This document shows positions 22,443 to 39,899 of a stretch of 64,000 nt of DNA, in pieces. Location of the stretch: contig JAKAGV010000007.1 in assembly GCA_021815405.1 (NCBI GenBank), forward strand, positions 181,888 to 245,887, given 5' to 3'. Under the pieces are notes generated by a model. That model was not told where the DNA came from and searched no databases. It worked only from the letters and a program-made list of their open reading frames with translations. Each line of letters opens with the position of its first letter. The first letter of the stretch is position 1. The stretch is from Bacteroidota bacterium. Lineage in GTDB: Bacteria > Bacteroidota > Ignavibacteria > Ignavibacteriales > Ignavibacteriaceae. The position numbers were made by a program, and so were the translations under genes.

Positions 22443-25400
22443 TTGAAAAAAAATATCAGCAACAATCAAAAATATAACGAGCGGGAGCTAGAAGAATTCG
22501 AAGGTCTTCTAAAAAAACTCATTGCCGAAAACAAGATTCCTGAAAGTTTTAACAGTATTGCTGAAAACCTTTCATCAATTGTTTCTTCATATAAAAAAGA
22601 ATTTGAAACTCATAAACTAATTCTTGAAACTTCGGTTGATGTTATCTTTAAGATTACTCAAGCCGGCGAAATTATATCTATCGGAGAAAAGTGTAAGGAT
22701 ATTTTCGGATACGGTCCGGATGAATTAACAAACAAATTTATTACCAGTTTTATTCCTTCAACAGAATTAAAAAAAGCTTTAAAAATTTTCACAAAGCTTT
22801 TTAAGGAAAAGAAAGTAAAGAATGAGGTCGTTTCTTTAAAACATAAAAACGGGCAGTTAATTCCTATTGAACTGACTGCAATGGTAATTAAGCAGGACGG
22901 GAAATATATTGCCCAGGGAATATTGCATGAGCTAAGCGAGCGTTATAAAGTTGAAGCCAACACAGATATTTCGGATAGTATTTTCAAAAATGTTTGGGAA
23001 AAATCTTCAAACGGAATGTGCCTTGCCGATGAAAACGGTTATGTTTTTATGTGCAACACTGCTTATTCCAAAATCTTCAGTAAAGACAAAATTGAAATTG
23101 AACATCAACTTATTACAAATGTTTTATCCGATAGTACGGCTGATACTGTCTTAAGCGATTACACTAAAAATTTCAATGATCATTCTTTCCCAAGCAGTAT
23201 TGAAAAAAAATATGAGTTGTGGAACGGCACTGCAGTAGATTTTGAAGTAAGCTATTCTTTTATTGAAGGTGTAGGAGATAAAACACTTTTACTTATAATT
23301 TTTAAAGATATTTCTCTCAGAAAAGCAAGCGAAATTCATGCAAAGAAGAGGGACAACTTGCTTCAAGGAATTGCAGCGGCTACACAAAGACTTATTTCTA
23401 CAAATGATCCGGAAATCGGATTCTCTTCTGCCTTAAAAATACTTGGCGAAGCTGTCAAAGTAAACCGGGCTTACATTTATAAACATAAATCCGTAGAAGA
23501 TACCGGCGAAATGTACGTTAGTTTGCTTTATGAATGGACGTCTGAAGATACGGAACATCAAATTGAAAATATTGAACTGCAGAAACTATCTTACTCCCGA
23601 TTCGAATCTTTGAGATTCTACGATGCATTCTCCAACGGCAAGCCTCTTAGTTTTGTAATGAAAAATTTGTCCGAAGAAGAACGCCTTCTATTCATCGATA
23701 AAAATATTAAATCGATTATACTTGCACCGATCATGGTTGACGGACTTTATTGGGGCTTTCTTGGATTCGACGATTGTGAAACTGACAGGGAATGGACACC
23801 GAATGAAGGATCACTTTTGGTAACTATGGCTTCAATGCTTGGTGCTGTAATCAAGAGGAATAATATTCAGGACGAGCTAATAAAAAAGAATGCCGAACTT
23901 GACGCAGCAATAGTTAAAGCAGAAGCTGGAACTAAGGCTAAAAGCGAATTCCTTGCTTTGATGAGCCACGAAATTAGAACTCCAATGAACGGAGTAATCG
24001 GAATGACGGGGCTCCTTTTAGATACTGATTTAAGTGATGAGCAAAGAGAATATGTTGAAACAATCCGTCTCAGCGGTGATCATCTTTTAGTAATAATAAA
24101 TGATATATTGGACTTCTCTAAGATCGAATCAGAAAAATTAGAACTTGAAATGCAGCCTTTCGATCTGAAAGATTGTGTCGAAGACTGCCTTGATTTATTG
24201 GCTTCAAAAGCGGGCGACAAAGGTCTTGATCTTGCTTACTTGATTGAAAATAATACTCCTCAAACTATTTTTGGCGATGTTACAAGGCTTAAACAAATTA
24301 TTACCAATCTTCTTAACAATGCAATCAAGTTTACCGAAAAAGGCGAAGTCTTTCTTTCTGTTTCTTCCAAAGAGATTAACAATAATAAATTCGAAATTCA
24401 ATTCTTTGTTAAAGATACCGGCATAGGAATTCCAGAGGATAGGATTGACAGATTATTCAAGGCGTTCAATCAGGTAGATGTTTCTACAACAAGAACACAT
24501 GGCGGTACGGGACTTGGATTAGTAATTAGCAAACGACTTTCCGAGATGATGAGCGGAAAAATGTGGTTCGAAAGCAAGTACGGTGCAGGTTCTACTTTTT
24601 ATTTTACAATTATTGCTGAGCAAGCTCCTTCCAAATCAAAAATATATTTGAAAGGTAAAGCAATCGAGCTTGAAGGCAAGAAAGCTTTAATAGTGGATGA
24701 TAATGCTACGAACAGAAGAATCTTAAAAATGCAGACAGGCAACTGGGGTATGCAGCCCTATGTTGTTGAATCTCCGCTTGATGCAATTAGACTGATGAAT
24801 AACGGAGAAGACTTTGACATAGCTATTTTAGATTATCATATGCCGGTTATGAACGGCGTGGAGCTTACAAAAGAAATCCGTAACACTCCAAAGGGAAAAA
24901 ATCTTCCTGTTGTAATTTTAACATCGATAGGTAAAAGAGAAGCCGACGGAGATTTTAACAATTTGAATTTAGCCGCATTTATTACTAAGCCTGTTAAACA
25001 AGTTCAGCTTTATGATTGTCTTACTTCAATCTTATCCGGTAAAGAAAAAGTACAGTCCAATATTCCTAAGAATGAAGTAAAACTAGATACGGAATTGGGG
25101 CATCGAATGCCACTCAGAATTCTTTTAGCAGAAGACAATGTTGTAAATCAAAAGGTTGCTACTAGAATTTTGGAAAGGCTGGGATTCAGAGCAGATGTTG
25201 CTGCAAACGGGTTTGAGGTAATTGAGGCAATCAAAAGAATAAATTATGATATTATCTTTATGGATATTTTTATGCCCGAAATGGACGGCTATGAAGCTAC
25301 AAAATATATCCTGGATAATTATAAAAATGATGAGAGACCAAAAATAATTGCAATGACGGCGAATGCTATGCAGGGTGATAAAGAAAAATGCCTTGAAGCC

Positions 25401-25904
25401 GGAATGGATGATTACATCGGTAAACCTGTGCGTGTTGAAGAGCTTCAGGCATCACTGCAGAAGTGGGGATTAATTATTTACGACGATAAAAATTCCAGGC
25501 TTGCTGTAGATGAAAGTAAGCAAACGTCTTTCAAATATGTTGATGAAGGTAAAATTGATTTAATCCAGGATATAAAATCCTCCGAAGATTTAAATTTCTT
25601 TATAGAGCTGCTCGATATTTATATTAAAGATTTGCCATTAAGCATTGCAAGAATTAAAAATGCTGTGGTTCAAAGAGATAAGAATCAGATCAGATTTTAT
25701 GCACACAAACTGAAAGGAAGCAGTCTTACCTTTGGAATACGCGCAATATCAGATAAATGTATCAAGATAGAAGAAGCAGTTAAACAAGATATTGATAATC
25801 CTCGTACGGCTGATTTAGTTGAAGAGCTTATAGTAAAATTTGAAGTAGTTATAAAAGAACTGGAACAACTGAAAGAAAAATATAGTCACATGTCCTTCTC
25901 ATAA
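22443..25904 (+). CDS. Hybrid sensor histidine kinase (PAS-PAS-GAF-HisKA-HATPase-REC-REC-HPt)
   Basis: 1153 aa. H-box [12 protein letters not shown] and G-box GGTGLGL. Two receiver domains ([11 protein letters not shown] and [11 protein letters not shown]) and a C-terminal HPt (AHKLKGSS). Confidence 0.85.
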
Positions 25905-27776: not shown

Positions 27777-28133
<357 letters not shown>

Positions 28134-29266: not shown

Positions 29267-29572
29267 ATGTCTAAAGTAATTTTTACAGTTCAATACGAGT
29301 TAAAACCTGATAAGAAAGAAGAATATCTTAGTGTTGTTAAGGAATTAAAGAATTTACTTAAGACCGACTTGCTTGAAAGCTATGCGGTTTATGAAGTAAA
29401 AGGAAAACCTAATCATTTTCAGGAAGTTTATACCTTCATCTCAGAAGAAGCTTATGATTCTTTTGACGACGACCAAAATGAAAGAATGAACATCTTAATA
29501 AGCAAACTTACCGAGATGACGGTTGAGAACTCGACCAAATATACTGTCCTAAATGAACTTCAGGTTAGTTAA
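29267..29572 (+). CDS. Hypothetical small protein (possibly ABM/Dabb ferredoxin-like fold)
   Basis: 101 aa with a GGAGAAAAA RBS-like sequence upstream. No family recognised with certainty. Confidence 0.4.
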   Translation: MSKVIFTVQYELKPDKKEEYLSVVKELKNLLKTDLLESYAVYEVKGKPNHFQEVYTFISEEAYDSFDDDQNERMNILISKLTEMTVENSTKYTVLNELQVS

Positions 29573-29622: not shown

Positions 29623-29655
29623 ATAATTATTGAAGCGATTAGTCAAATAATCGCT
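29623..29655 (+). terminator. Rho-independent terminator
   Basis: AAGCGATTA - gtcaaa - TAATCGCTT followed by TCTTTTTTT. It separates the dapF unit from the cytochrome cluster. Confidence 0.75.
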
Positions 29656-29703
29656 TTCTTTTTTTAAAGCAATTACTTTTAATCATCATTAAAAAAAGAT
29701 CCA

Positions 29704-30582
29704 ATGACGAAAACTGTACATAGATTTTATATCGCTTCCTTTTTCCTAATAACAATTACAGCAACTCTAGTCCTTTCTATTGAAGGATTCAATTATTATA
29801 AAACTCCTCTTGTTGATAGATTCTTTTCACCTCTCGATACATTACTTAAGCCAAGCGGATTAATCGGGCACGGTCTCGGCATTATAGGCAGTCTGATGAT
29901 GATTTTTGGGGTTGCAATCTATATGATACGAAAGCGAGTTAGATATTTCCATAAGTTCGGTTATCTTAAACATTGGCTGGAATTTCACATTTTCCTTTGC
30001 ACACTGGGTCCAATCTTAATTTTATTTCACACCGCATTTAAGTTTGGCGGAATTGTAGCAGTAAGTTTTTGGAGCATGGTAGCAGTAGTAATTAGTGGTG
30101 CAATAGGAAAATTTATCTATACTCAAGTACCGCATACAATTCAAGGGCAAATGATTAGCTTGCACGAATTAAATTCGCTAAGTGAAAATCTTTCGCAAGA
30201 GCTCAAAAATGATTATGGACTGTCTGACAAAATTATATCTAAAATAGAGCAAATTTCTTCCTTAGACCGCTACAAAAGATTAAAATTTGGAGCGAGTATG
30301 GCACTTGTAATACAGGATTATTTTGGTACAAAAAATGTATTGAACATGCTGAAAAAAGAATTACGCGTTGCCAATGTTCATAAAATTCAAAGGAAGAAAA
30401 TTTTAAAGACTGCTAAAGAAAAACTAGTTATTTCTAGGCGTATAGGATTATTAAATACAACGCAGAAGATACTAAAATACTGGCATGTAATTCATCTTCC
30501 TTTTGCGATCATAATGTTTATCATAATGTTCGTTCACATTGCGGTAGAAATTATATTCGGCTATACGTGGATCTTTAAGTGA
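29704..30582 (+). CDS. Polytopic membrane protein with two H-x13-H pairs (putative di-heme b-type transmembrane cytochrome)
   Basis: 292 aa with about 5 TM helices. H95-x13-H109 (EFH IFLCTLGPILILF H) and H264-x13-H278 (VIH LPFAIIMFIIMFV H) sit in two separate helices. A ~110-aa basic loop lies between TM4 and TM5. Confidence 0.5.
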   Translation: MTKTVHRFYIASFFLITITATLVLSIEGFNYYKTPLVDRFFSPLDTLLKPSGLIGHGLGIIGSLMMIFGVAIYMIRKRVRYFHKFGYLKHWLEFHIFLCTLGPILILFHTAFKFGGIVAVSFWSMVAVVISGAIGKFIYTQVPHTIQGQMISLHELNSLSENLSQELKNDYGLSDKIISKIEQISSLDRYKRLKFGASMALVIQDYFGTKNVLNMLKKELRVANVHKIQRKKILKTAKEKLVISRRIGLLNTTQKILKYWHVIHLPFAIIMFIIMFVHIAVEIIFGYTWIFK

Positions 30583-30670
30583 TTATTGGGATTTTATGGT
30601 GAGAAATAAAATGGGGAATTTTAGGGAGGGCAATTTAGATTACATATTTCATAAGTAAAGTGTGAGATAG

Positions 30671-32008
30671 ATGGAAATATTATTGGAAAATCTCGCTACC
30701 TATCTGGTAGTCTTTATTGCCGCAACTGCTGTTTTGATATTATATATTAAAAAGCTTAGAAGAAATACTCGGGAAACCAAATCAAAGATTGAAGAGTCAA
30801 TCCAATTTGGTCTTCATGAACCGGTTTCTTTGCATCCTGTAATAAATCATGATTTATGCTTTGGCTGCGGATCTTGCATTGAAGCTTGCCCCGAACAGGA
30901 TGTGCTTGGTCTTATGGAAGCACAAGCTCATATAATACACGCTTCCAGGTGCGTTGGACATGGTGCATGCTTTAGGGCATGTCCGGTTGATGCAATAACA
31001 TTATGTATAGGTACAGATCAGCGCGGTGTAGATCTTCCGCATGTTACACCTGAATATGAATCAAACATTCCCGGTTTATTTATTGCCGGCGAACTTGGAG
31101 GAATGGGATTAATTAAGAATGCAGTTGAGCAGGGGAAAATGGCTATAAATTTTCTTTCTAATAAAATTCCTTCGTCATCAAAAGCACAATATGACGTCAT
31201 CATTGTCGGAGCTGGTCCTGCCGGCATAGCTGCATCTCTTGCTGCTGAAAAAAAGAAAATGAAATATCTAACCCTGGAACAGGATAGTCTTGGTGGAACA
31301 GTTTTCAATTTTCCACGTGCAAAAATTATTATGACTGCACCAATGGATTTACCTTTACATGGAAAAGTTAAGCTTAGAGAAACTTCAAAGAGTGCGCTTA
31401 TTGAGTTATGGCGTGAGGTTTTAAGTAAGAATCGGATAGTCATTCATGAAAGTGAAAAAGTTGAATCAATAGAAAGAAAGGGGGATTATTTTTTTGAAGT
31501 CAAAACGAATAAAAGACAATATACTTCGCAAGGAATAATACTTGCAATCGGAAGAAGAGGAACACCGCGTAAACTAGGTGTCCCAGGTGAACAAAAAGAA
31601 AAAGTGGCTTATCGTTTAATTGAACCTGAATTAATATCTAATCAATCTATATTAATTGTCGGCGGAGGAGATTCTGCTGTAGAATCCGCAATGTTACTTA
31701 TGAACAATAATAAAGTTACTATTTCTTACCGGAGTGAAAATTTCTCTCGCTTGAAGCCGAAGAATCTTGAATTAATTCAGAATTCGGAAAAAAGCGGTAA
31801 GGTCAAGATTTATTTCAATTCAAACGTTAAAGAAATTTTAGATGATAAAGTTATTCTTGTCGTTTCCGGTTTAGAAAATAATGTAACTATAAAGAATGAC
31901 TTAGTATATATTTTCGCAGGCGGCTTACTGCCGACTGACTTTCTTCAGAAGATAGGCATACAAGTAATGAAGAAACACGGCGAAGCTGTTATAAAACCTG
32001 GACAATAA
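30671..32008 (+). CDS. Membrane-anchored 2x[4Fe-4S] ferredoxin-domain / FAD-NAD(P)-binding oxidoreductase (thioredoxin-reductase-like fold)
   Basis: N-terminal TM helix followed by KKLRRNTRETK. Cluster motifs CFGCGSCIEACP and CVGHGACFRACP. Rossmann motifs DVIIVGAGPAGIAAS and ILIVGGGDSAVE. Confidence 0.7.
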   Translation: MEILLENLATYLVVFIAATAVLILYIKKLRRNTRETKSKIEESIQFGLHEPVSLHPVINHDLCFGCGSCIEACPEQDVLGLMEAQAHIIHASRCVGHGACFRACPVDAITLCIGTDQRGVDLPHVTPEYESNIPGLFIAGELGGMGLIKNAVEQGKMAINFLSNKIPSSSKAQYDVIIVGAGPAGIAASLAAEKKKMKYLTLEQDSLGGTVFNFPRAKIIMTAPMDLPLHGKVKLRETSKSALIELWREVLSKNRIVIHESEKVESIERKGDYFFEVKTNKRQYTSQGIILAIGRRGTPRKLGVPGEQKEKVAYRLIEPELISNQSILIVGGGDSAVESAMLLMNNNKVTISYRSENFSRLKPKNLELIQNSEKSGKVKIYFNSNVKEILDDKVILVVSGLENNVTIKNDLVYIFAGGLLPTDFLQKIGIQVMKKHGEAVIKPGQ

Positions 32009-32111
32009 TTTGTCGTTGATTCATAAGCGGTTGAAAGGAACAGAAATTTTTAAAGCGGTTTTTTTATTGAGGCATATTAAGTGCCGGGGTAATGTCTCGG
32101 CTTATTTTGTT

Positions 32112-33725
32112 ATGAAGAAATTGACGAGCCTGTTTAGTCTTTCAATCATTATTATGATTATGGTGTCGATGAGAACAAATGCGCAAATATCACCTGGTAA
32201 TCTTACTTTGGCGCATGCAAAGTTAGAAGGCTTAAGCAATTGTACAAAATGTCATGTTCTCGGAAAGCAGGTAGAAAATTTTAAGTGCCTCGATTGCCAT
32301 ACCGAGATTAAACAGCTTATAGATGAGGGTAAGGGATACCACGCAAGCAGCGATGTTAAAAATCAAAAGTGTTATAAGTGCCATAGTGAGCATCATGGAA
32401 GAAATTTTAGAATAATCAATTTCGATCCTAATAAATTTGACCATAACAAAACCGGATTTAGATTGGACGGCAAGCATACGCAGATAAAATGCGAAGACTG
32501 CCATCAAACCAAATTTATTATTAACACTACTCTATTTGATAAAAGAAGTGGAACTTATTTAGGTTTAAGTACAAAATGCGTTTCATGTCATGAAGATGTT
32601 CATCAAAATACTCTTGGAACCAACTGCTCTTCCTGCCACAACACAGTAAAATTTAATCCTGCTGTTTTCTTCAACCATAATAATGCAAAGTTTAAACTGA
32701 CAGGCGCACACACCAAGGTTGAATGTATTAAGTGCCATGTTAAAGAAACTTTTAACGGTAAGACATTTCAGAAATTTGTAGGATTGGATTTTAAGAATTG
32801 CATGCCGTGTCATGCAGATGTTCATAAAGGGCAGTTAGGAAATAACTGCGTTAAATGCCATAATGATGAATCCTTCCTAGTAGTCAACCGTAACTCATTT
32901 GATCATGATAAGACGAGATATCCATTAAGAGGTGCCCACGTAGAAGTTTCTTGTAAAAGCTGCCACGGTAATATTCCTCTTTCTAAACCGAAGTTTGCAA
33001 AATGTACCGACTGCCATAAGGACGAACACTTCGGTGAATTTACTGTAAATCATGTTGTTGAAGACTGCAAGAACTGCCACACGGTAGAAAGTTTTAAGTC
33101 AACAATATTTACTATTCAAGAACATAATAAAGGTAATTTTGAATTAACCGACGCTCATTTAGCAGTGCCGTGTCAGTCATGTCATTATAAATCAAATGAA
33201 AAGCAATGGCACTTTAAAAATACAGGGACTAGATGCATCGACTGCCATAATAATGTTCATGGTTCGGAATTAACGGCAAAGTTTTTACCGGATAACAAAT
33301 GTCAGTCTTGTCATGTAACCGATGATTGGAATAAAATTAATTTCAATCACGATCTGACGAGCTTCAAGTTAGAAGGTAAGCATGCAGAAATATCATGCGC
33401 CGACTGCCACGAACAGAAAAGTGCCGGTGGAAAAATAATTTTCAAATTTGCGTCAACGAAATCTGATTGCGTAACATGTCATAATGATGTTCACTTCGGA
33501 CAGTTCAATTCCGAAAAAACAGACGATATCCCGGTCTGCGAAAAATGTCACGGCTTTGATAATTGGAAGCCGGTGAAGTTTGATCATGAAAAGACAGCAT
33601 TCGCGTTAAAGGGTGCTCACGAAAAAGTGAAATGTTCAGATTGTCATAAGAAAGTTACTGTAGATGGAAATGAATTTATACAATATAAGCTGAAAGATTT
33701 TAAATGCGCTGCGTGTCATTCATAA
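32112..33725 (+). CDS. Multiheme c-type cytochrome, 20 CXXCH motifs
   Basis: ATG at 32112 (MKKLTSLFSLSIIIMIMVSMRTNAQ signal/anchor). I counted 20 CXXCH motifs. The pattern F.H..(T/K).F.L.G.H....C..CH recurs throughout. Confidence 0.85.
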   Translation: MKKLTSLFSLSIIIMIMVSMRTNAQISPGNLTLAHAKLEGLSNCTKCHVLGKQVENFKCLDCHTEIKQLIDEGKGYHASSDVKNQKCYKCHSEHHGRNFRIINFDPNKFDHNKTGFRLDGKHTQIKCEDCHQTKFIINTTLFDKRSGTYLGLSTKCVSCHEDVHQNTLGTNCSSCHNTVKFNPAVFFNHNNAKFKLTGAHTKVECIKCHVKETFNGKTFQKFVGLDFKNCMPCHADVHKGQLGNNCVKCHNDESFLVVNRNSFDHDKTRYPLRGAHVEVSCKSCHGNIPLSKPKFAKCTDCHKDEHFGEFTVNHVVEDCKNCHTVESFKSTIFTIQEHNKGNFELTDAHLAVPCQSCHYKSNEKQWHFKNTGTRCIDCHNNVHGSELTAKFLPDNKCQSCHVTDDWNKINFNHDLTSFKLEGKHAEISCADCHEQKSAGGKIIFKFASTKSDCVTCHNDVHFGQFNSEKTDDIPVCEKCHGFDNWKPVKFDHEKTAFALKGAHEKVKCSDCHKKVTVDGNEFIQYKLKDFKCAACHS

Positions 33726-36664
33726 TTGTTTTATTACTGGGGGTAGTGAATGTCTTTGCACAATCACCTCATGGCAAAGATTTGAAGATGGATTGTTCGG
33801 ACTGTCATATGTCTACAAACTGGAATATTGTTCCGGCTAAGATAAAATTTAATCATAATACTATGACTTCATTTAAATTGACTGGACAGCATACAACGGT
33901 AAGCTGTCAGTCGTGTCATAAAAGTCTAATTTTTTCTGAGGCAAAATCGAATTGTATATCTTGCCACAAAGATATTCATAAAAATTCTTTAGGACCTAAT
34001 TGCGTTGAATGCCACAATACTCAGTCTTGGATTGCAGTTAATATTTTAAAATTGCATCAGGACAGCAGGTTTTCGCTGGTTGGTGTTCATCAAAATGTTG
34101 ATTGTCAAAGTTGCCACTCAGGTTTTGCTGATTTATATTTTCCGACTCAAAGTACATCGTGTTATAGCTGCCATAAAACGCAATTCGCCGCAGCCACCGC
34201 ACCAAATCATGTTCAAGCAAATTTTTCCACCGACTGCCGGCAATGCCACAGTGTAACAGATTTTTCATGGGGGACAAGCAATTTTAATCATAATTTCTTC
34301 CCGCTTGTAGGCGGGCATAATATTCAGAACTGTTTTGCCTGCCATGCAGCGGGAAGTAATTTCCAGGGATTGACAACTGCTTGCTATCCATGTCATAAAC
34401 AGGATTATGCAAATGCAAAAAATCCCGATCATGTTGCGGCTAAGTTTCCAATTGAATGTCAGGATTGCCATACTTCTACAGCTACAAGTTTTGCTCAGGC
34501 ATCAACTTTTAATCATAGTACTACCGGTTTTCCATTGACCGGTGCACACACTACTGTTTTATGCCAGTCTTGCCATAATGGAAATTATACAAGCACGCCA
34601 TCGGATTGCAACTCATGCCATAATAAAGATTATGCAGGTACAACAAATCCGAATCATGCTGCTATTGGATTGGCGACTACGTGTCAAGATTGTCATAATA
34701 CAACAACCTTTACTACAACCACTTTTAATCATTCTACAACTTCATTTGGGCTAACAGGTGCACACACAACTATTTCATGTCAATCATGCCATAAGGGAAA
34801 TGTTGCCTCAACACCGACAGATTGTTATAGCTGCCATGCAACCCAATATAATAACACAACAGATCCGAACCATGCACAGCAAGGTTTCTCGCATGATTGT
34901 TCTCAGTGTCATAGTACAACTAGTTTTGGTGATGCAAATTTCAATCATAGCAATACCGGTTTCCCATTGACTGGAGCACACACTACCGTCTCCTGCCAGT
35001 CTTGTCATAATGGAAATTATACAAGCACGCCGTCTGATTGCAACTCGTGCCATAATAAAGATTATACGGCAACTACTAATCCAAATCATTCTGCGATTGG
35101 TCTGCCGACGACATGTCAGGATTGTCATACAACAACAGACTTTACAACATCGACATTTAATCACTCGACAACACCATTCCCATTAACTGGTGCGCATACA
35201 TCTGTAACCTGTCAGTCATGTCATACAGGTAATGTAGCTTCAACACCGACAGATTGTTATAGCTGCCATGCAACCCAATATAACAACACAACAGATCCGA
35301 ACCATGCACAGCAGGGATTCTCACATGATTGTTCTCAGTGCCATAGTACAACAAGTTTCGGCGATTCAAATTTCAATCATAGTACTACCGGTTTTCCTTT
35401 GACTGGTGCACATACAACAGTTTCATGTCAGTCATGCCATAATGGAAATTATACAAGCACGCCGTCTGATTGCAACTCGTGCCATAATAAAGATTATACG
35501 GCAACTACTAATCCAAATCATTCTGCGATTGGTCTGCCGACGACATGTCAGGATTGTCATACAACAACAGACTTTACAACATCGACATTTAATCACTCGA
35601 CAACACCATTCCCATTAACTGGTGCGCATACATCTGTAACCTGTCAGTCATGTCATACAGGTAATGTAGCTTCAACACCGACAGATTGTTATAGCTGCCA
35701 TGCAACCCAATATAACAACACAACAGATCCGAACCATGCACAGCAGGGATTCTCACATGATTGTTCTCAGTGCCATAGTACAACAAGTTTCGGCGATGCA
35801 AATTTCAATCATAGCAATACCGGTTTCCCATTGACTGGAGCACATACTACCGTCTCCTGCCAGTCTTGTCATAATGGAAATTATACAAGCACGCCTTCTG
35901 ATTGCAACTCATGCCATAATAAAGATTATGTTGCAACTACAAATCCTAATCATGCTGCAATAGGATTGGCAACAACCTGTCAGGATTGCCACACAACAAC
36001 AGACTTTACAACATCGACATTTAATCACTCGACAACACCATTCCCATTAACTGGTGCGCATACGTCTGTAACCTGTCAGTCATGTCATACAGGTAATGTA
36101 GCTTCAACACCTACTGATTGCTATAGCTGTCATGCAACCCAATATAACAACACAACAGATCCAAACCATGTACAGCAAGGATTCTCGCATGACTGCTCTC
36201 AGTGTCATTCAACGACAAGTTTCGGCGATGCATCATTCAATCATAATAATACCGGATTTCCATTGACAGGTGCGCATACAACTGTCTCCTGCCAGTCATG
36301 CCATAATGGGAATTATACAAGCATACCTACTACTTGTTATTCATGCCATCAAACAGATTATAATAATACAACAAATCCTGCTCATCAAACTGCAGGGTTT
36401 CCCACGGACTGCACCCCTTGCCATACGACAACCGGTTGGACACCGTCGACTTTTAATCATACAACATATTTCCCATTGACGGGCAACCATGATATTTCTA
36501 CTTGCAATACATGCCATATAAATGCTTCAAACTTCGGAACATTTTCTTGCACTAATACATGTCACAGTCAGGCAAGTACAGATCCGCATCATACCGGGGT
36601 AAATGGATATGTTTACAGCCCAACATCATGCTACAGTTGCCATCCAACAGGGCAGGGAGATTAG
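33704..36664 (+). CDS. Giant multiheme c-type cytochrome, 39 CXXCH plus one CX3CH, built of c7-like triheme modules
   Basis: 986 aa with signal peptide MRCVSFIIVLLLGVVNVFA/QS. I counted 39 CXXCH motifs and one CTNTCH. The start overlaps the end of the upstream cytochrome gene by 22 nt. Very Thr/Ser/Asn-rich. Confidence 0.85.
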   Translation: MRCVSFIIVLLLGVVNVFAQSPHGKDLKMDCSDCHMSTNWNIVPAKIKFNHNTMTSFKLTGQHTTVSCQSCHKSLIFSEAKSNCISCHKDIHKNSLGPNCVECHNTQSWIAVNILKLHQDSRFSLVGVHQNVDCQSCHSGFADLYFPTQSTSCYSCHKTQFAAATAPNHVQANFSTDCRQCHSVTDFSWGTSNFNHNFFPLVGGHNIQNCFACHAAGSNFQGLTTACYPCHKQDYANAKNPDHVAAKFPIECQDCHTSTATSFAQASTFNHSTTGFPLTGAHTTVLCQSCHNGNYTSTPSDCNSCHNKDYAGTTNPNHAAIGLATTCQDCHNTTTFTTTTFNHSTTSFGLTGAHTTISCQSCHKGNVASTPTDCYSCHATQYNNTTDPNHAQQGFSHDCSQCHSTTSFGDANFNHSNTGFPLTGAHTTVSCQSCHNGNYTSTPSDCNSCHNKDYTATTNPNHSAIGLPTTCQDCHTTTDFTTSTFNHSTTPFPLTGAHTSVTCQSCHTGNVASTPTDCYSCHATQYNNTTDPNHAQQGFSHDCSQCHSTTSFGDSNFNHSTTGFPLTGAHTTVSCQSCHNGNYTSTPSDCNSCHNKDYTATTNPNHSAIGLPTTCQDCHTTTDFTTSTFNHSTTPFPLTGAHTSVTCQSCHTGNVASTPTDCYSCHATQYNNTTDPNHAQQGFSHDCSQCHSTTSFGDANFNHSNTGFPLTGAHTTVSCQSCHNGNYTSTPSDCNSCHNKDYVATTNPNHAAIGLATTCQDCHTTTDFTTSTFNHSTTPFPLTGAHTSVTCQSCHTGNVASTPTDCYSCHATQYNNTTDPNHVQQGFSHDCSQCHSTTSFGDASFNHNNTGFPLTGAHTTVSCQSCHNGNYTSIPTTCYSCHQTDYNNTTNPAHQTAGFPTDCTPCHTTTGWTPSTFNHTTYFPLTGNHDISTCNTCHINASNFGTFSCTNTCHSQASTDPHHTGVNGYVYSPTSCYSCHPTGQGD
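34508..36235 (+). repeat. Four in-frame tandem copies of a 432-bp (144-aa, 6-heme) unit with a 216-bp sub-period
   Basis: Units start at 34508, 34940, 35372 and 35804. Segment 35006-35365 is identical base-for-base to 35438-35797 (360 bp). A degenerate fifth unit follows to about 36470. Confidence 0.9.
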
Positions 36665-36669
36665 TATTT

Positions 36670-38346
36670 ATGAATTATGATAGGTATGAGATGAAATTGT
36701 ATCGGAGAATATTAAATAACCAATTGAAAAAGTTGTTTGAAATATTTTTGCTAATTATATTATTTTTTGGTGCTGCCTTAGCTCAAGAATCAAATACCGT
36801 TAGAAAAAGCGGAACTGTATCATTCGTTACTCCGCAAAATATTTATGTTAAGTTCGAGAATACAGAAGGAATATCCGCCGGCGATACTCTTTATTTTCAA
36901 ATAAGAAATAAAGTACTGCCTGCAATGATTGTAAAATTTATTTCTTCTATTTCAGTTGCCGGACAGAAGATAACCGATATCAATATTAAAGTTGGGGACC
37001 GGCTTTTTACAACGATAAAGAATAGCAAATCCGAAGTAGCCCAAATATCAAAAGCCGGAACTGAAAAGGACACTAATCTTGTTAATGACCATAGTAAGAT
37101 TGTAAAAGCCGATAAGTTCAATATCCCCGAATACAGATCAAATTTTTATGGAAGCATAAGTGCAAATTCGTTTTCTAATTACGCCAACTATGTTAACAGT
37201 GTAGGCATCCAGCGCTGGAATTACACTTTAAATCTTAATGCAAGAAATATAGGCGGCGGTCCGTTTTATTTTACAAATTATATGAACTTAAATTACATGA
37301 GCTCAGAATGGACGGATGTAAAAGCAAACGTATTTAATAATTTAAGAGTGTATGATTTTTCACTCGGTTATAAAGTGCATGGATTTAATGCCTGGATAGG
37401 CAGACACACAAATTATAATATTTCAAGTCTTGGTCCGGTTGACGGGATTGAATTGGAAAAATCTTTCTTGAATAACTTTGCTGTAGGTGGAGTAATTGGC
37501 TCAAGGCCGGATTTTTATAACATGGGAATTAACGGAAAGCTGTTTGAGTACGGCGGTTATTTAACAAGAAAGGATTCTGCAAACAATGGAGTTATGCAAA
37601 ATACAGTTGCCTTATTCCAGCAAACCAATTCAGGTATGACTGACAGAAGATATTTATACTTCCAGCATACAAATACTATTATTCCGAATGTATATCTATT
37701 TGCTTCCACGGAAGTTGATTTATATAAGGAACAAAACAACGTTCCGCAGAATACATTTTCTCTTACAAGCCTTTTTGTCAATACTCAGTATTCGCCTGTA
37801 AACTTTCTTTCAATTAACCTTTCATACGACGCCAGAAAGAATGTTGTTTATTATCAAACATTTAAAAGCTTCCTAGATAGTCTGTTTACAAATGAAATGA
37901 GACAAGGCGTTCAAGGCGGATTTTTTATAAGACCCGGCGGCGGGTTGTTCTTTAATATTTCAGGCGGTTACAGCTATCAGAAAGGCGACGTTAAGCCAGC
38001 GCGTAATTTAAATTTTGCTGTTACTGAAGCCGAGCTTCCTTTTATTGATATTTCTGCTACGGTAAATTATAATAAGATTTTTGGAAGCTACCAGAGCGGA
38101 ACAATGTATGGGCTGCTGCTTACCAAATTTATTAACTTTAATGTTACTACTCTTTCTTTAGGATTTTCAAATATTAATTACAATTTTGGCAATGCATTAG
38201 CCGATTTTATACAGAAGTCAGTTACCGCCGAAATTGATACAAGAATATTCGGTCCGCTCTTCTTCAATTTTTATTATGAAGGAGATTTTGACGGTGTAAC
38301 CACATATAACCGTTTTATGACGGGCTTCAATTACAGATTTAGATAA
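36670..38346 (+). CDS. Putative outer-membrane beta-barrel protein with an N-terminal soluble domain
   Basis: The ATG at 36670 (or 36691) gives the signal-like LFEIFLLIILFFGAALA/QE. The body is aromatic/Gly/Asn-rich with alternating hydrophobicity. It ends with the OMP-type C-terminus ...GFNYRF. Starts 5 nt after the cytochrome stop. Confidence 0.55.
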   Translation: MNYDRYEMKLYRRILNNQLKKLFEIFLLIILFFGAALAQESNTVRKSGTVSFVTPQNIYVKFENTEGISAGDTLYFQIRNKVLPAMIVKFISSISVAGQKITDINIKVGDRLFTTIKNSKSEVAQISKAGTEKDTNLVNDHSKIVKADKFNIPEYRSNFYGSISANSFSNYANYVNSVGIQRWNYTLNLNARNIGGGPFYFTNYMNLNYMSSEWTDVKANVFNNLRVYDFSLGYKVHGFNAWIGRHTNYNISSLGPVDGIELEKSFLNNFAVGGVIGSRPDFYNMGINGKLFEYGGYLTRKDSANNGVMQNTVALFQQTNSGMTDRRYLYFQHTNTIIPNVYLFASTEVDLYKEQNNVPQNTFSLTSLFVNTQYSPVNFLSINLSYDARKNVVYYQTFKSFLDSLFTNEMRQGVQGGFFIRPGGGLFFNISGGYSYQKGDVKPARNLNFAVTEAELPFIDISATVNYNKIFGSYQSGTMYGLLLTKFINFNVTTLSLGFSNINYNFGNALADFIQKSVTAEIDTRIFGPLFFNFYYEGDFDGVTTYNRFMTGFNYRFR

Positions 38347-38379
38347 TTAACTAAATTATAACTAAAAATTTCTTTAACT

Positions 38380-39000
38380 ATGTTTGGAAAAATAAAACCC
38401 TTATATATTTATTTGGTCGCAATATTTTTAGGTATAGTAGGACTTTTCATCTTTAATAAAATTCATAATAAAACCTCTGCGGAGATGAATGCACCGCCTA
38501 TTGATGTAAACGGTCAAGCCGTTCCTAATGATGCAATTCATAAAGGATTGGTAAATCCAGTTGCACAAAAGCCGAACAAGAACAACGTAATGCCGAGCAT
38601 TATGCAGCATATGGAAACATTAAAGAAGGCGGTTATTGATCATCCGAGAGATACTTTAAAGTTAAGAGAATATGCCGACTTTCTTGCTGAAGCTCAAATG
38701 AATGATAAAGCTTTGAATTATTATCAGAAGATTCTTCGCATAAATCCCAGAAGAACCGACGTCATGACTTCAATGGTTTACATTTATTTTGCTGAAAAAA
38801 ATTTTAAAGAAGCCGAGAGATACTTGAATAAAATTTTATTTGTAAATAGAAACGACGTTAATGCTTTGTACAACCTTGGCGCAGTTTCGGCTAATGAGGG
38901 AAACAGAGTGAAAGCTAAACAGTTGTGGACAAAAATTGTTAAGGAGTTTCCAAACTCACCTCTTGCAAAAGAAGCAAGGGCTTCATTAAGCCAACTATAG
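38380..39000 (+). CDS. Membrane-anchored TPR-repeat protein (paralog 1)
   Basis: 206 aa with an N-terminal TM helix and TPR-like repeats (A..YY.KIL..NP....). Clear paralog of 39294..39899. Confidence 0.6.
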   Translation: MFGKIKPLYIYLVAIFLGIVGLFIFNKIHNKTSAEMNAPPIDVNGQAVPNDAIHKGLVNPVAQKPNKNNVMPSIMQHMETLKKAVIDHPRDTLKLREYADFLAEAQMNDKALNYYQKILRINPRRTDVMTSMVYIYFAEKNFKEAERYLNKILFVNRNDVNALYNLGAVSANEGNRVKAKQLWTKIVKEFPNSPLAKEARASLSQL

Positions 39001-39244
39001 ATTTTTTTTCTGTGCAAATTTGTTATAGTTAATAAACATCAAAATGATCGATTCTATTTACGTCATATCAAAATTCGAATAAACATTCGCTAACGGGTAA
39101 ATCTTAATCTCTTCTTATACTTCTTCTTTCCTATTGATGAGAAAAATACAATCATATTTTATCAATTCAGAAACGAAAACTTTTCTTATCAATTTATTTC
39201 AATCAAAAATCAAGATTTTTTCATCTTCATCAGTTCTTAAAAAA

Positions 39245-39261
39245 TTGGTATAGAAACTGCC
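39245..39261 (+). promoter_or_regulatory. Possible sigma-54 (-24/-12) promoter TTGGTATAGAAACTGCC
   Basis: GG at 39247-48 and GC at 39259-60 with the exact 10-nt spacing, 33 nt upstream of the 39294 ATG. Several consensus mismatches (TGGTAT vs TGGCAC, CTGC vs TTGC). Confidence 0.25.
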
Positions 39262-39293
39262 AATTACGGCAACTGAAATTTAGGAATCTGAAG

Positions 39294-39899
39294 ATGAAAA
39301 ACATTAAACCTATTTACATATACGGAATCGGTGTAATATTAAGTGCACTGGTATTTATTTTCCTTTCACAAAAAGATGAGACAAGCTATCCTGGTAAGAC
39401 AGGAAACATGACTAACGAGCAAATGCCGAATGATAATATCCATAAAGGATTAACAAATCCGTTGCAGCTTCCAAATAAAAATAATGTTGCTGAAGCTATT
39501 ATGCAGCGGATGCAAATGCTTAAGCAGGCTGCTGAATCTAATCCGAAAGACACTGCAAAACTTAAAGCCTATGCGGATTTTCTTTCAGCGGCGCATCAGC
39601 CTGACGAAGCATTGGTTTACTACAACAAAATATTAAGTATGTATCCAAGGCGGATCGATGTTCTTTTCTCGGTTGCTTATCTAAATTATACAAAAAGAAA
39701 TTTTACCGAAGCGGAAAAGATTCTGAAAAAAGTTATTTCTTATGATAGGAATAATCTTCAGGCATATTATAATTTAGGTGCAATTGCTGCAAGCGAAGGT
39801 AACAAGGAAAAAGCAAAAGAAATCTGGACAAAATTGATTAAAGATCATCCAACTGCACAGATTGCTGCTACAGCTAGAAAATCTTTAGGTGAGATTTAA
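39294..39899 (+). CDS. Membrane-anchored TPR-repeat protein (paralog 2)
   Basis: 201 aa. Shares PND.IHKGL.NP, NKNNV, YADFL, YYN.GA..A.EGN..KAK..WTK with paralog 1. Confidence 0.6.
   Translation: MKNIKPIYIYGIGVILSALVFIFLSQKDETSYPGKTGNMTNEQMPNDNIHKGLTNPLQLPNKNNVAEAIMQRMQMLKQAAESNPKDTAKLKAYADFLSAAHQPDEALVYYNKILSMYPRRIDVLFSVAYLNYTKRNFTEAEKILKKVISYDRNNLQAYYNLGAIAASEGNKEKAKEIWTKLIKDHPTAQIAATARKSLGEI

Follow-up and report, generated by a model that had tools for sequence, protein, structure and literature searches.

How might electrons from the cytoplasm reach an acceptor outside the outer membrane when no quinol dehydrogenase gene is found beside the genes of the conduit that would carry them? In the model Gram-negative systems for extracellular electron transfer, those of Shewanella and Geobacter, the path starts from quinol dehydrogenases. 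We addressed this question for a cluster of seven genes, here called g1 to g7, in a 64,000-nucleotide stretch of DNA (the window) from a member of the Ignavibacteriaceae (Bacteroidota; GenBank assembly GCA_021815405.1, contig JAKAGV010000007.1, positions 181,888 to 245,887 of the forward strand). A first-pass annotation, made from the sequence alone, had read the cluster as a porin-cytochrome conduit with an input from cytoplasmic NAD(P)H. We found that the cluster is likely a PCC3-type trans-envelope conduit, based on agreement at the level of motifs and architecture, and that a gene for a membrane-anchored iron-sulfur (FeS)/FAD/NAD(P)H oxidoreductase is a conserved fifth member of its core. 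On balance, we lean toward a mechanism in which this oxidoreductase is the dedicated cytoplasmic electron-input enzyme of the conduit.

Gene content and likeness to PCC3

The cluster extends from 29704 to 39899 in the window and consists of seven co-directional open reading frames (ORFs) on the + strand, with junctions from g1 to g7 of 88, 103, -22, 5, 33, and 293 nt (Table 1). These positions and junctions were the same as those in the first-pass annotation, and the domain content described there also held: an anchored FeS/FAD/NAD(P) protein (g2), cytochromes with 20 and 39 CXXCH motifs (g3 and g4), and two paralogous TPR proteins (g6 and g7). There were no CXXCH-rich ORFs other than g3 and g4 across the 64-kb window.

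Four components of the cluster match PCC3. PCC3 was defined bioinformatically in iron-oxidizing and other Proteobacteria and comprises a porin, a periplasmic and an extracellular cytochrome, and an inner-membrane protein (He et al. 2017, Front Microbiol 8:1584, PMC5566968). The median heme number is 21 for the periplasmic cytochrome and 34, with a maximum of 85, for the extracellular one, whose sequence has many repeats and much Thr, Ser, Ala, and Gly (PMC5566968). The inner-membrane protein, of about 300 amino acids, has five transmembrane (TM) segments, of which TM3 and TM5 each carry WX3HX13H and TM4 carries SGXXG. He et al. compared it with ferric-reductase domains and cytochrome b, with which it shares the HX13H spacing, and proposed that it is quinone-active (PMC5566968). 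In later papers, including a Gallionellaceae pangenome (PMC9900912), PCC3 is a set of four genes with unverified function. In our cluster, g1 is a 5-TM protein of this size with the full signature, exactly that of PCC3 and PCC4; g3, with 20 hemes, corresponds to the periplasmic cytochrome; g4 corresponds to the repeat-rich and Thr/Ser-rich cytochrome with many hemes; and g5 corresponds to the porin.

The cluster differs from PCC3 in its host, in its gene content, and possibly in its electron input. Descriptions of PCC3 are limited to Proteobacteria; they give four genes and a quinone-pool model, and their context is iron oxidation. The window comes from an FCB-group host, and its cluster has the oxidoreductase as a fifth core gene and, in addition, anchored TPR proteins. 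No FAD, NAD, or 4Fe-4S protein is mentioned for PCC3 in He et al. 2017 or its supplements (PMC5566968). The earlier claim that this gene combination is undescribed is thus correct only in part; the papers that we searched contain no description of g2.

Our literature searches did not turn up this cluster. Among the papers that could be searched, none linked PCC3 with Ignavibacteria or Bacteroidota, and searches on 'quinone-independent' extracellular electron transfer and on Ignavibacteria together with ferredoxin and beta-barrel found nothing. For porin-cytochromes of Ignavibacteria, the searches gave only a Geobacter-like Pcc (IALB_1837-1840) and clusters of the OmbB-like or MtrB-like kind, which differ from ours in heme counts and sizes; the periplasmic cytochrome of the Ignavibacterium album Pcc, for example, has 400 amino acids and 14 hemes. 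The papers on Melioribacter roseus do not describe the cluster either. We could not find a description of the conserved NAD(P)H-type FeS-flavoprotein, the distribution in the FCB group, the plasmid-borne copy described below, or the reading of the input as similar to that of NADPH oxidases.

The resemblance to the conduits of Shewanella (MtrCAB) and Geobacter (OmbB-OmaB-OmcB Pcc) was more general. As in those systems, a barrel gene is beside genes for periplasmic and outer multiheme cytochromes, and MtrB was among the structural matches of g5. In contrast, those systems have cytochromes of 8-12 hemes, outer cytochromes that are lipoproteins, and input from the quinol dehydrogenases CymA, ImcH, or CbcL. 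The scores for the NCBIfam models of DmsE/MtrA (TIGR03508, 59.6 versus 192) and OmcA/MtrC (TIGR03507, 38 versus 209) were far below the cutoffs, and the likeness of g5 to MtrB is that of a generic barrel; we therefore do not place the cluster with MtrCAB or MtoAB.

Predicted properties of the proteins

The histidines of g1 are placed as would be expected for a protein with two hemes stacked across the membrane. The signature residues are W91x3H95x13H109 on TM3, S131GAIG135 on TM4, and W260x3H264x13H278 on TM5, with the two HX13H pairs at His95/His109 and His264/His278. A hydropathy scan gave five TM segments, and K/R counts (positive-inside) placed the N-terminus, the loop 76-93, and the loop of about 120 amino acids at 135-255 in the cytoplasm and the C-terminus outside. 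With the N-terminus inside, TM3 and TM5 should therefore both run from inside to outside. His95 and His264 lie toward the cytoplasmic side of the membrane, and His109 and His278 toward the periplasmic side, such that 95/264 and 109/278 form pairs at matched depths. In this predicted topology, the arrangement is the geometry needed for two stacked hemes, and we propose that g1 binds two b hemes, one through His95 and His264 on the cytoplasmic side and one through His109 and His278 on the periplasmic side.

These residues are conserved among diverse relatives. In 50 g1 homologs (26-47% identity), the WX3HX13H and SGXXG signature residues were invariant or nearly so, and H95, H109, H264, H278, G59, Y73, G132, G135, and W260 were invariant. 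Among the same 50 homologs there were weak Pfam matches to DUF4405 (33/50, best 5.7e-6), Ferric_reduct (21/50, best 2.6e-4), and Ni_hydr_CYTB (10/50), all of which are heme-b membrane families; for g1 of the window itself the match to DUF4405 had E = 2.6. One homolog was named 'PepSY domain-containing protein' by NCBI. When checked against the possibility that it belongs to a non-redox family, g1 thus fell in a family of the di-heme-b type. Heme b binding has been shown experimentally for a DUF4405 protein (PMC11334425). The DUF4405, PepSY-like, and MsrQ-like transmembrane cytochromes described in that paper are, like g1, membrane-bound with four central His, but they have six TM helices and a link to ApbE flavinylation, and have neither multiheme cytochromes nor a barrel (PMC11334425).

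The product of g2 appears to be an oxidoreductase anchored to the cytoplasmic face of the inner membrane. It has a TM segment at residues 8-26 that is followed by KKLRR, and its catalytic part is therefore predicted to be cytoplasmic; an N-terminal hydrophobic helix followed by basic residues was also present in the four distant homologs that we inspected. A dicluster ferredoxin domain (residues 55-112) matched Pfam Fer4, Fer4_10, and Fer4_21 above their cutoffs. The remainder consists of FAD and NAD(P)H Rossmann domains of the thioredoxin-reductase/YpdA type, with no redox-active disulfide. The best PDB match of this flavin part was YpdA/Bdr (7a76, 6e-32), followed by ferredoxin-NADP reductases of the thioredoxin-reductase type. 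The protein was below curated cutoffs for TIGR04018 (166.5 versus 339.9 bits) and TIGR01292 (86.7 versus 343), and judging from these comparisons it shares only its fold with the bacillithiol-disulfide reductase YpdA/Bdr and with thioredoxin reductase. All eight Cys of g2 are in the FeS domain. We considered a function as a disulfide reductase and rejected it, as there is no redox-active Cys pair and no Cys beyond that domain.

The FeS motifs of g2 are unusual. In the window they are CxxCxxCxxxCP and CxxHxxCxxxCP (residues 63-104). The His of motif 2 (C-x2-H-x2-C-x3-CP) was invariant in 79/79 homologs, and the second position of motif 1 was Ser in 70/79 and Cys in only 5/79, the window copy included. 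This suggests one His-ligated cluster together with, in most relatives, a 3Fe or Ser-ligated cluster. The two [4Fe-4S] clusters of the first-pass annotation are consequently only approximately right: the dicluster matches agree with them, and the His and Ser residues do not fit the standard pattern. His-ligated [4Fe-4S] clusters are typically at points of electron entry or exit, such as the distal cluster of [NiFe] hydrogenases, which we take as a lead only. The dinucleotide-binding motifs GxGxxG and GGGDSA were invariant across the 79 homologs, and a YR...F.R stretch was conserved. Both the FeS and the FAD and NAD(P)H motifs were kept in the other phyla that have g2. By analogy, this stretch may correspond to the place where thioredoxin reductases bind the 2'-phosphate of NADPH.

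The two cytochromes have the composition of electron wires. g3 and g4 have about two His and 25-27 amino acids per heme and therefore fit bis-His electron wires. g3 is a candidate for a wire that spans the periplasm, where we would expect it to be located. Its heme number was nearly constant, with 20 CXXCH in 39/44 complete Ignavibacteria loci and also in Krumholzibacteriia. g4 is rich in Thr (17%), Ser (11%), and Asn (9%) and is a candidate for an outer or extracellular wire that may be exposed on the surface. Its heme number varied among relatives from 22 to 49 CXXCH, with 83 in one locus (L035), because of the copy number of the 432-bp repeat (Table 1). A copy of g1 that is identical, with the same neighbours, was present in Ignavibacteriaceae metagenome-assembled genomes (MAGs), for example GCA_027391775.1. 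In that assembly, g4 encodes 698 amino acids with 27 CXXCH and has two repeat units fewer, a difference that could be either strain variation or collapse of the repeat in a short-read assembly.

The product of g5 was predicted to be an outer-membrane barrel. An AlphaFold2 model (45 homologs, pLDDT 82) had a signal-anchor helix, a small beta domain (43-117) that is probably periplasmic in this model, a disordered linker, and about 22 antiparallel strands at 158-557. The matches of this model to the PDB by Foldseek were outer-membrane barrels only, including FimD/PapC ushers, porins, and MtrB (6r2q_B, 1e-6). There was no Pfam or NCBIfam match, including to the MtrB model. The non-barrel outcome that would have counted against a conduit was thus not seen, and together with the strong synteny described below and the multiheme cytochromes, the predicted barrel makes a trans-envelope porin-cytochrome conduit, as proposed in the first-pass annotation, the best reading of the cluster.

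The role of the TPR proteins is less clear. The match of g6 to TPR_CcmH_CycH (3e-6) was under the cutoff, and the possibilities include an apocytochrome chaperone and a partner of g1. Most relatives have one TPR copy, between g1 and g2.

Conservation, partner replacement, and surroundings of the cluster

Relatives have the genes of the cluster in strong synteny. g1 belongs to a large family: clustering at 90% identity gives more than 7,000 clusters, and at the 50% level there are 3,126 representatives with E<=1e-3. We scanned one genome per species and found a g1 relative in at least 570 genomes, of which the best 80 were Ignavibacteria or Melioribacteraceae MAGs, some deposited as Bacteroidetes. 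In a homolog search meant to locate the cluster in a type strain (M. roseus or I. album), all of the matches listed were MAG-derived or unnamed proteins, some of them under the names Melioribacter sp. and Ignavibacterium sp. ORFs were called in the related loci and labelled with the window proteins. g2 was adjacent to g1 in 68/70 Ignavibacteria loci that extend at least 2.5 kb past g1 on the downstream side. Where at least 9.5 kb was available, g2 was present in 48/49, a cytochrome with at least 10 hemes in 46/49, g5 in 44/49, and a TPR gene in 41/49.

g2 adjoined g1 in all of the distant contexts that we examined, even though the gene order was shuffled. A Krumholzibacteriia MAG (L085) has g2, upstream of and overlapping g1, then g3 with 20 hemes, g4 with 22, g5, and ResB. 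A soil contig (L086, 63% G+C) has the order g1-g3-g4-g5-g2. On one metagenome contig (L090), g2 is divergent from g1-g3-g4-g5, and on another (L087) it is divergent from g1, after which a g3-like gene begins and is cut off where the contig stops. On plasmid pEMTOL02 of Emticicia oligotrophica DSM 17448, the order is CcsA-g1-g2, cytochromes with 23 and 40 hemes, and a 538-aa protein. The g5 homologs of the Krumholzibacteriia (E 7e-18) and the soil contig (1e-7) are downstream of the cytochromes. That the same genes were kept together through these rearrangements is strong evidence that they work together.

Two further observations concern individual loci. The host of pEMTOL02 is a cultured Cytophagales isolate from warm spring water, and its cluster, complete with g1, g2, two cytochromes, and the barrel, has a long CcsA (1028 aa) upstream and a GW-domain protein downstream. 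The product of a 418-aa ORF on a metagenome contig (L091) combines the first two-thirds of a g1 homolog with a short fragment of a CXXCH cytochrome and the last part of a g2 homolog. This ORF looks like a deletion remnant of the cluster, and no cytochrome or barrel gene comes after it.

We found no gene for a quinol dehydrogenase with the cluster, as the first-pass annotation had claimed. There was none in the window, and in the 84 loci scanned the 10 kb around g1 contained no further ORF with at least four CXXCH (CymA, ImcH, or CbcL type).

In small plasmid modules, a different reductase takes the place of g2. Shorter g1 homologs (242-253 aa; profile E 1e-35 to 4e-23) are encoded on plasmids of Sphingobium, Spirosoma, and Methylophaga, each with a cytochrome gene and, on the other flank of the g1 homolog, a reductase gene (Table 1). 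The cytochrome has seven hemes by CXXCH count in Sphingobium and Spirosoma, and in Methylophaga is a 254-aa multiheme protein of the c7 type by Pfam. The reductases (612-688 aa) have a fold unlike that of g2. That of Methylophaga has FAD_binding_6, NAD_binding_1, and 2Fe-2S Fer2 domains by Pfam, and those of Sphingobium and Spirosoma (636-688 aa) are annotated as 2Fe-2S or FAD-binding oxidoreductases. Two unrelated NAD(P)H-type flavo-FeS enzymes are thus found beside one membrane family, which suggests that the function conserved is electron exchange with the pyridine nucleotides of the cytoplasm. Together with the adjacency of g2 and g1 across phyla, this replacement of the partner provides comparative support for the input proposed in the first-pass annotation, a cytoplasmic NAD(P)H flavoprotein acting through a transmembrane di-heme b protein.

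The plasmid modules belong with clusters that were previously listed without a porin. Supplementary Table 6 of He et al. 2017 (PMC5566968) contains clusters of a multiheme cytochrome, an HX13H inner-membrane protein of the same membrane family, and a redox protein. These modules differ from the cluster in the window in having three genes, a cytochrome of 7-10 hemes, and no barrel or giant cytochromes, and in having a partner of the FNR type (FAD/NAD/2Fe-2S) rather than of the thioredoxin-reductase type with 4Fe-4S. The three contexts that we inspected were amid copper or mercury resistance genes, and the modules may reduce metals in the periplasm. Separately, 24 sphingomonad plasmids, most of them typed as conjugative, carry a cytochrome that matches the N-terminal third of g3.

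The cluster in the window (G+C about 36%) has clear borders and housekeeping genes on its flanks. The terminator noted earlier ahead of the cluster is present, and the terminator-like hairpin closes an upstream unit of dapF and a small ORF, forming the 5' border; the 3' border is a convergent cation-efflux gene. The small ORF, which has no Pfam match, is kept between dapF and g1 in most Ignavibacteria loci. We rejected it as a member of the cluster as the terminator cuts it off from g1 and the versions of the cluster in Krumholzibacteriia, Emticicia, and soil do not have it; dapF is its probable partner. A hairpin in the gap between g2 and g3 could be an attenuator, an element affecting mRNA stability, or chance, and an Rfam scan found no regulatory RNA inside the cluster. 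Upstream of the cluster are also a tmRNA gene and a gene for a hybrid sensor kinase (Table 1).

Table 1. Positions of the cluster genes, of other features of the window, and of features in related loci (L numbers)
Feature	Position	Strand	Description
Terminator-like hairpin and T-run	29632..29665	+	intrinsic-terminator-like; 10-pair stem at 29632-29657, 6-nt loop, CTTTTTTTAA tail
g1	29704..30582	+	predicted inner-membrane protein, 292 aa; 5 TM helices, two HX13H pairs
g2	30671..32008	+	FeS-flavoprotein, 445 aa; N-terminal TM, Fer4 dicluster, Pyr_redox_3 4e-45
g3	32112..33725	+	multiheme cytochrome c, 537 aa; Sec signal peptide, 20 CXXCH, 43 His, 27 aa per heme
g4	33704..36664	+	multiheme cytochrome c, 986 aa; signal peptide, 39 CXXCH and 1 CX3CH, 85 His
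Tandem repeat inside g4	34503..36323	+	432-bp repeat, 4.2 copies; unit of 144 aa with 6 heme motifs
g5	36670..38346	+	predicted outer-membrane protein, 558 aa; signal peptide, beta domain 43-117, linker, barrel 158-557, ends ...NYRF
g6	38380..39000	+	N-terminally anchored TPR protein, 206 aa; TPR families
g7	39294..39899	+	anchored TPR protein, 201 aa; g6 paralog, 46% identical to g6
Hybrid sensor kinase gene	22443-25904	+	1153 aa, PAS-PAS-GAF-HisKA-HATPase-REC-Hpt; 4 kb upstream of cluster
tmRNA gene	27777-28133	+	Rfam RF00023, 182.7 bits, full-length; between cobalamin adenosyltransferase gene and dapF
Small ORF	29267-29572	+	101 aa
Hairpin in g2-g3 gap	32083-32101	+	G+C-rich 8-pair hairpin then TTATTTTGTT; in 103-nt gap, ends 10 nt before g3 start codon
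g4 with fewer repeat units, GCA_027391775.1	L001 14001-16097
E. oligotrophica DSM 17448 pEMTOL02 cluster	L088 8899-21483
Methylophaga pinxianii plasmid, small module	L089 12007-15784		reductase, g1 homolog, multiheme cytochrome, DUF1622 protein
Metagenome contig, 418-aa ORF	L091 1853-3109
Sphingobium sp. SYK-6 pSLPG, small module	L092 2246-6033		reductase, g1 homolog, 7-heme cytochrome c, DUF1622 protein
Spirosoma linguale pSLIN01, small module	L093 3066-7157		reductase, g1 homolog, 7-heme cytochrome c

The proposed electron path and its alternatives

In the mechanism that we favour, electrons would move from cytoplasmic NAD(P)H to the outside of the cell through a single chain of proteins. 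NAD(P)H would be oxidized by the FAD of the membrane-anchored g2, and electrons would cross its two FeS clusters, one with the invariant His ligand, to the cytoplasmic-side b heme of g1 (His95/His264) and then to the periplasmic-side b heme (His109/His278). From g1 they would pass to the 20-heme g3, which should be long enough to bridge much of the periplasm, then across the outer membrane by way of the g5 barrel, with one or the other cytochrome presumably sitting in it, and out through the 39-40 hemes of g4. The acceptor would be insoluble or extracellular: Fe(III) or Mn(IV) minerals, humics, an electrode, or a partner cell. Outward flow would be favoured because the donor, NAD(P)H, has a low potential and because an inside-negative membrane potential aids the exit of electrons. 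The route would not itself conserve energy; moving negative charge outward would dissipate rather than build the proton-motive force. It could be used to re-oxidize pyridine nucleotides in a fermenting cell or one limited for electron acceptors, acting as a redox valve rather than a coupling site.

The input module would follow the logic of a two-component NADPH oxidase (ferric-reductase-like) and would need no quinone. Eukaryotic NOX/FRE and the bacterial two-component MsrQ and Fre are ferric-reductase-domain systems. In these, as proposed for g2 and g1, NAD(P)H and flavin are cytoplasmic, His pairs on TM3 and TM5 ligate two b hemes, and electrons move to the outer face of the membrane. The layout is present in the cluster, with bis-His pairs at a 13-residue spacing on parallel TM3 and TM5 and an adjacent conserved NAD(P)H-type flavoprotein. 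The cluster differs from these systems in that g1 has five TM segments and not six, g2 has another fold and contains FeS clusters, and the acceptor would be a multiheme chain and not O2, Fe(III), or MsrP. A chain that is free of quinones throughout, from NAD(P)H to FAD, two unusual FeS clusters, two b hemes, 20 c hemes, the barrel, and about 40 external c hemes, is a proposal that we make tentatively and with some doubt.

Several points weigh against the favoured mechanism. g1 reached no Pfam threshold, with no Pfam match at E<=0.1 and no NCBIfam match. Its AlphaFold2 model was poor (pLDDT 65, pTM 0.45; 44-sequence alignment), a Foldseek comparison of the model with the PDB gave nothing below E = 0.5, and no PDB sequence was matched by the profile at E<=10, so that no fold could be assigned. 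We do not place g1 in the ferric-reductase family, as the hhalign comparison of the family profile with E. coli MsrQ was not significant (probability 0.4%), and the resemblance to the ferric reductase domain (PF01794) appears to be one of layout, not of family. The nucleotide specificity of g2 and the types of its FeS clusters are read from motifs only. g4 has no lipobox or type IX secretion system C-terminal domain, and its route to the surface is unexplained. Some Ignavibacteria loci are pared down, with housekeeping genes directly after: two (L034 and L048) keep only g1-TPR-g2 and two (L038 and L062) only g1-TPR. The inner-membrane module may therefore serve other acceptors. The check for quinol dehydrogenases covered the 64-kb window and 10 kb around g1 in the relatives. 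Reaction with quinones is common among the di-heme b proteins of related families. Finally, PCC3 itself, with all of its members, stands at the level of prediction, and the proteobacterial version has four genes with no flavoprotein and an inner-membrane protein that its authors proposed to be a quinone-active cytochrome b (PMC5566968).

The main alternative is a conduit coupled to quinones, as proposed by He et al. 2017, in which g1 would be a quinone-reactive cytochrome b between the menaquinone pool and the periplasmic cytochrome. g2 would then be an accessory, or else an alternative NAD(P)H:quinone oxidoreductase whose electrons enter the quinone pool by way of g1. This is the published reading of the same protein signature (PMC5566968). 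The weak matches of 10/50 g1 homologs to Ni_hydr_CYTB agree with it, as cytochrome b subunits of [NiFe]-hydrogenases exchange electrons with quinones, and so do the loci that hold g1-TPR-g2 with no nearby cytochromes, as might be expected for an NAD(P)H:quinone enzyme. However, g1 almost always had g2 or an unrelated NAD(P)H reductase as a neighbour, and an FeS-flavoprotein in the cytoplasm would be superfluous for a quinol oxidase. In addition, two stacked hemes with an anchored cytoplasmic donor are the established export layout of NOX/FRE and MsrQ-Fre, and we identified no quinone-site motif in g1. Based on these considerations, we think that coupling to quinones is less likely than the input that we favour.

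The direction of flow and the purpose of the inner-membrane module could also be other than we propose. The conduit might take up electrons, oxidizing extracellular Fe(II), a cathode, or a partner cell, which is also the hypothesis for PCC3 in iron oxidizers. PCC3 was discovered in the genomes of Fe(II) oxidizers, the inner-membrane gene of Sideroxydans PCC3 went up during iron oxidation, and multiheme wires are reversible in principle. We nevertheless consider uptake improbable. By established bioenergetics, reduction of NAD(P)+ (about -320 mV) with electrons from donors of the Fe(II) type is strongly uphill and would also run against the inside-negative potential, and the cluster has no energy-coupling subunit. 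Moreover, cultured Ignavibacteria have been described as organoheterotrophs, Melioribacter reduces Fe(III), and the cluster is also on a plasmid of E. oligotrophica, an isolate from warm spring water. We give the least credence to a function in maturation or maintenance, in which g1, g2, and the TPR proteins would provide periplasmic reducing power for heme or apocytochrome cysteines during assembly of the giant cytochromes, or would reduce periplasmic metals. The TPR proteins do resemble, below threshold, the TPR domain of the apocytochrome chaperone CcmH/CycH, cytochrome c biogenesis genes flank the cluster in Emticicia (CcsA) and Krumholzibacteriia (ResB), and small g1 modules are in copper and mercury resistance islands. 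But we know of no cytochrome c maturation system that needs such a module, and the core of g1-g2-g3-g4-g5 stayed together across many rearranged loci that lack biogenesis genes. In the pared-down loci, g1 always retains its TPR gene, and the TPR proteins may therefore act with the inner-membrane module and not as chaperones of cytochromes. In proteobacterial PCC3, the g1-type protein is the sole inner-membrane component, which fits a role in the electron path (PMC5566968).

If the mechanism with g2 as the cytoplasmic input is true, the cluster would encode a trans-envelope NAD(P)H:extracellular-acceptor oxidoreductase, a valve that does not conserve energy, common in Ignavibacteria, also present in other bacteria of the FCB group, and able to be plasmid-borne. 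With NAD(P)H as its direct electron source, a conserved conduit of this kind would wire metabolism to minerals, electrodes, or partner cells in a different way. The orphan inner-membrane protein of PCC3 and PCC4 clusters would gain a testable partner and mechanism, and in Proteobacteria too it might use a cytoplasmic partner rather than quinones. The plasmid cluster of E. oligotrophica DSM 17448 would be a practical experimental system, and the small plasmid modules a minimal version for reconstitution. Fermentative Ignavibacteria are often found on anodes and in iron-rich sediments, and the mechanism would explain how they could dispose of reducing equivalents.

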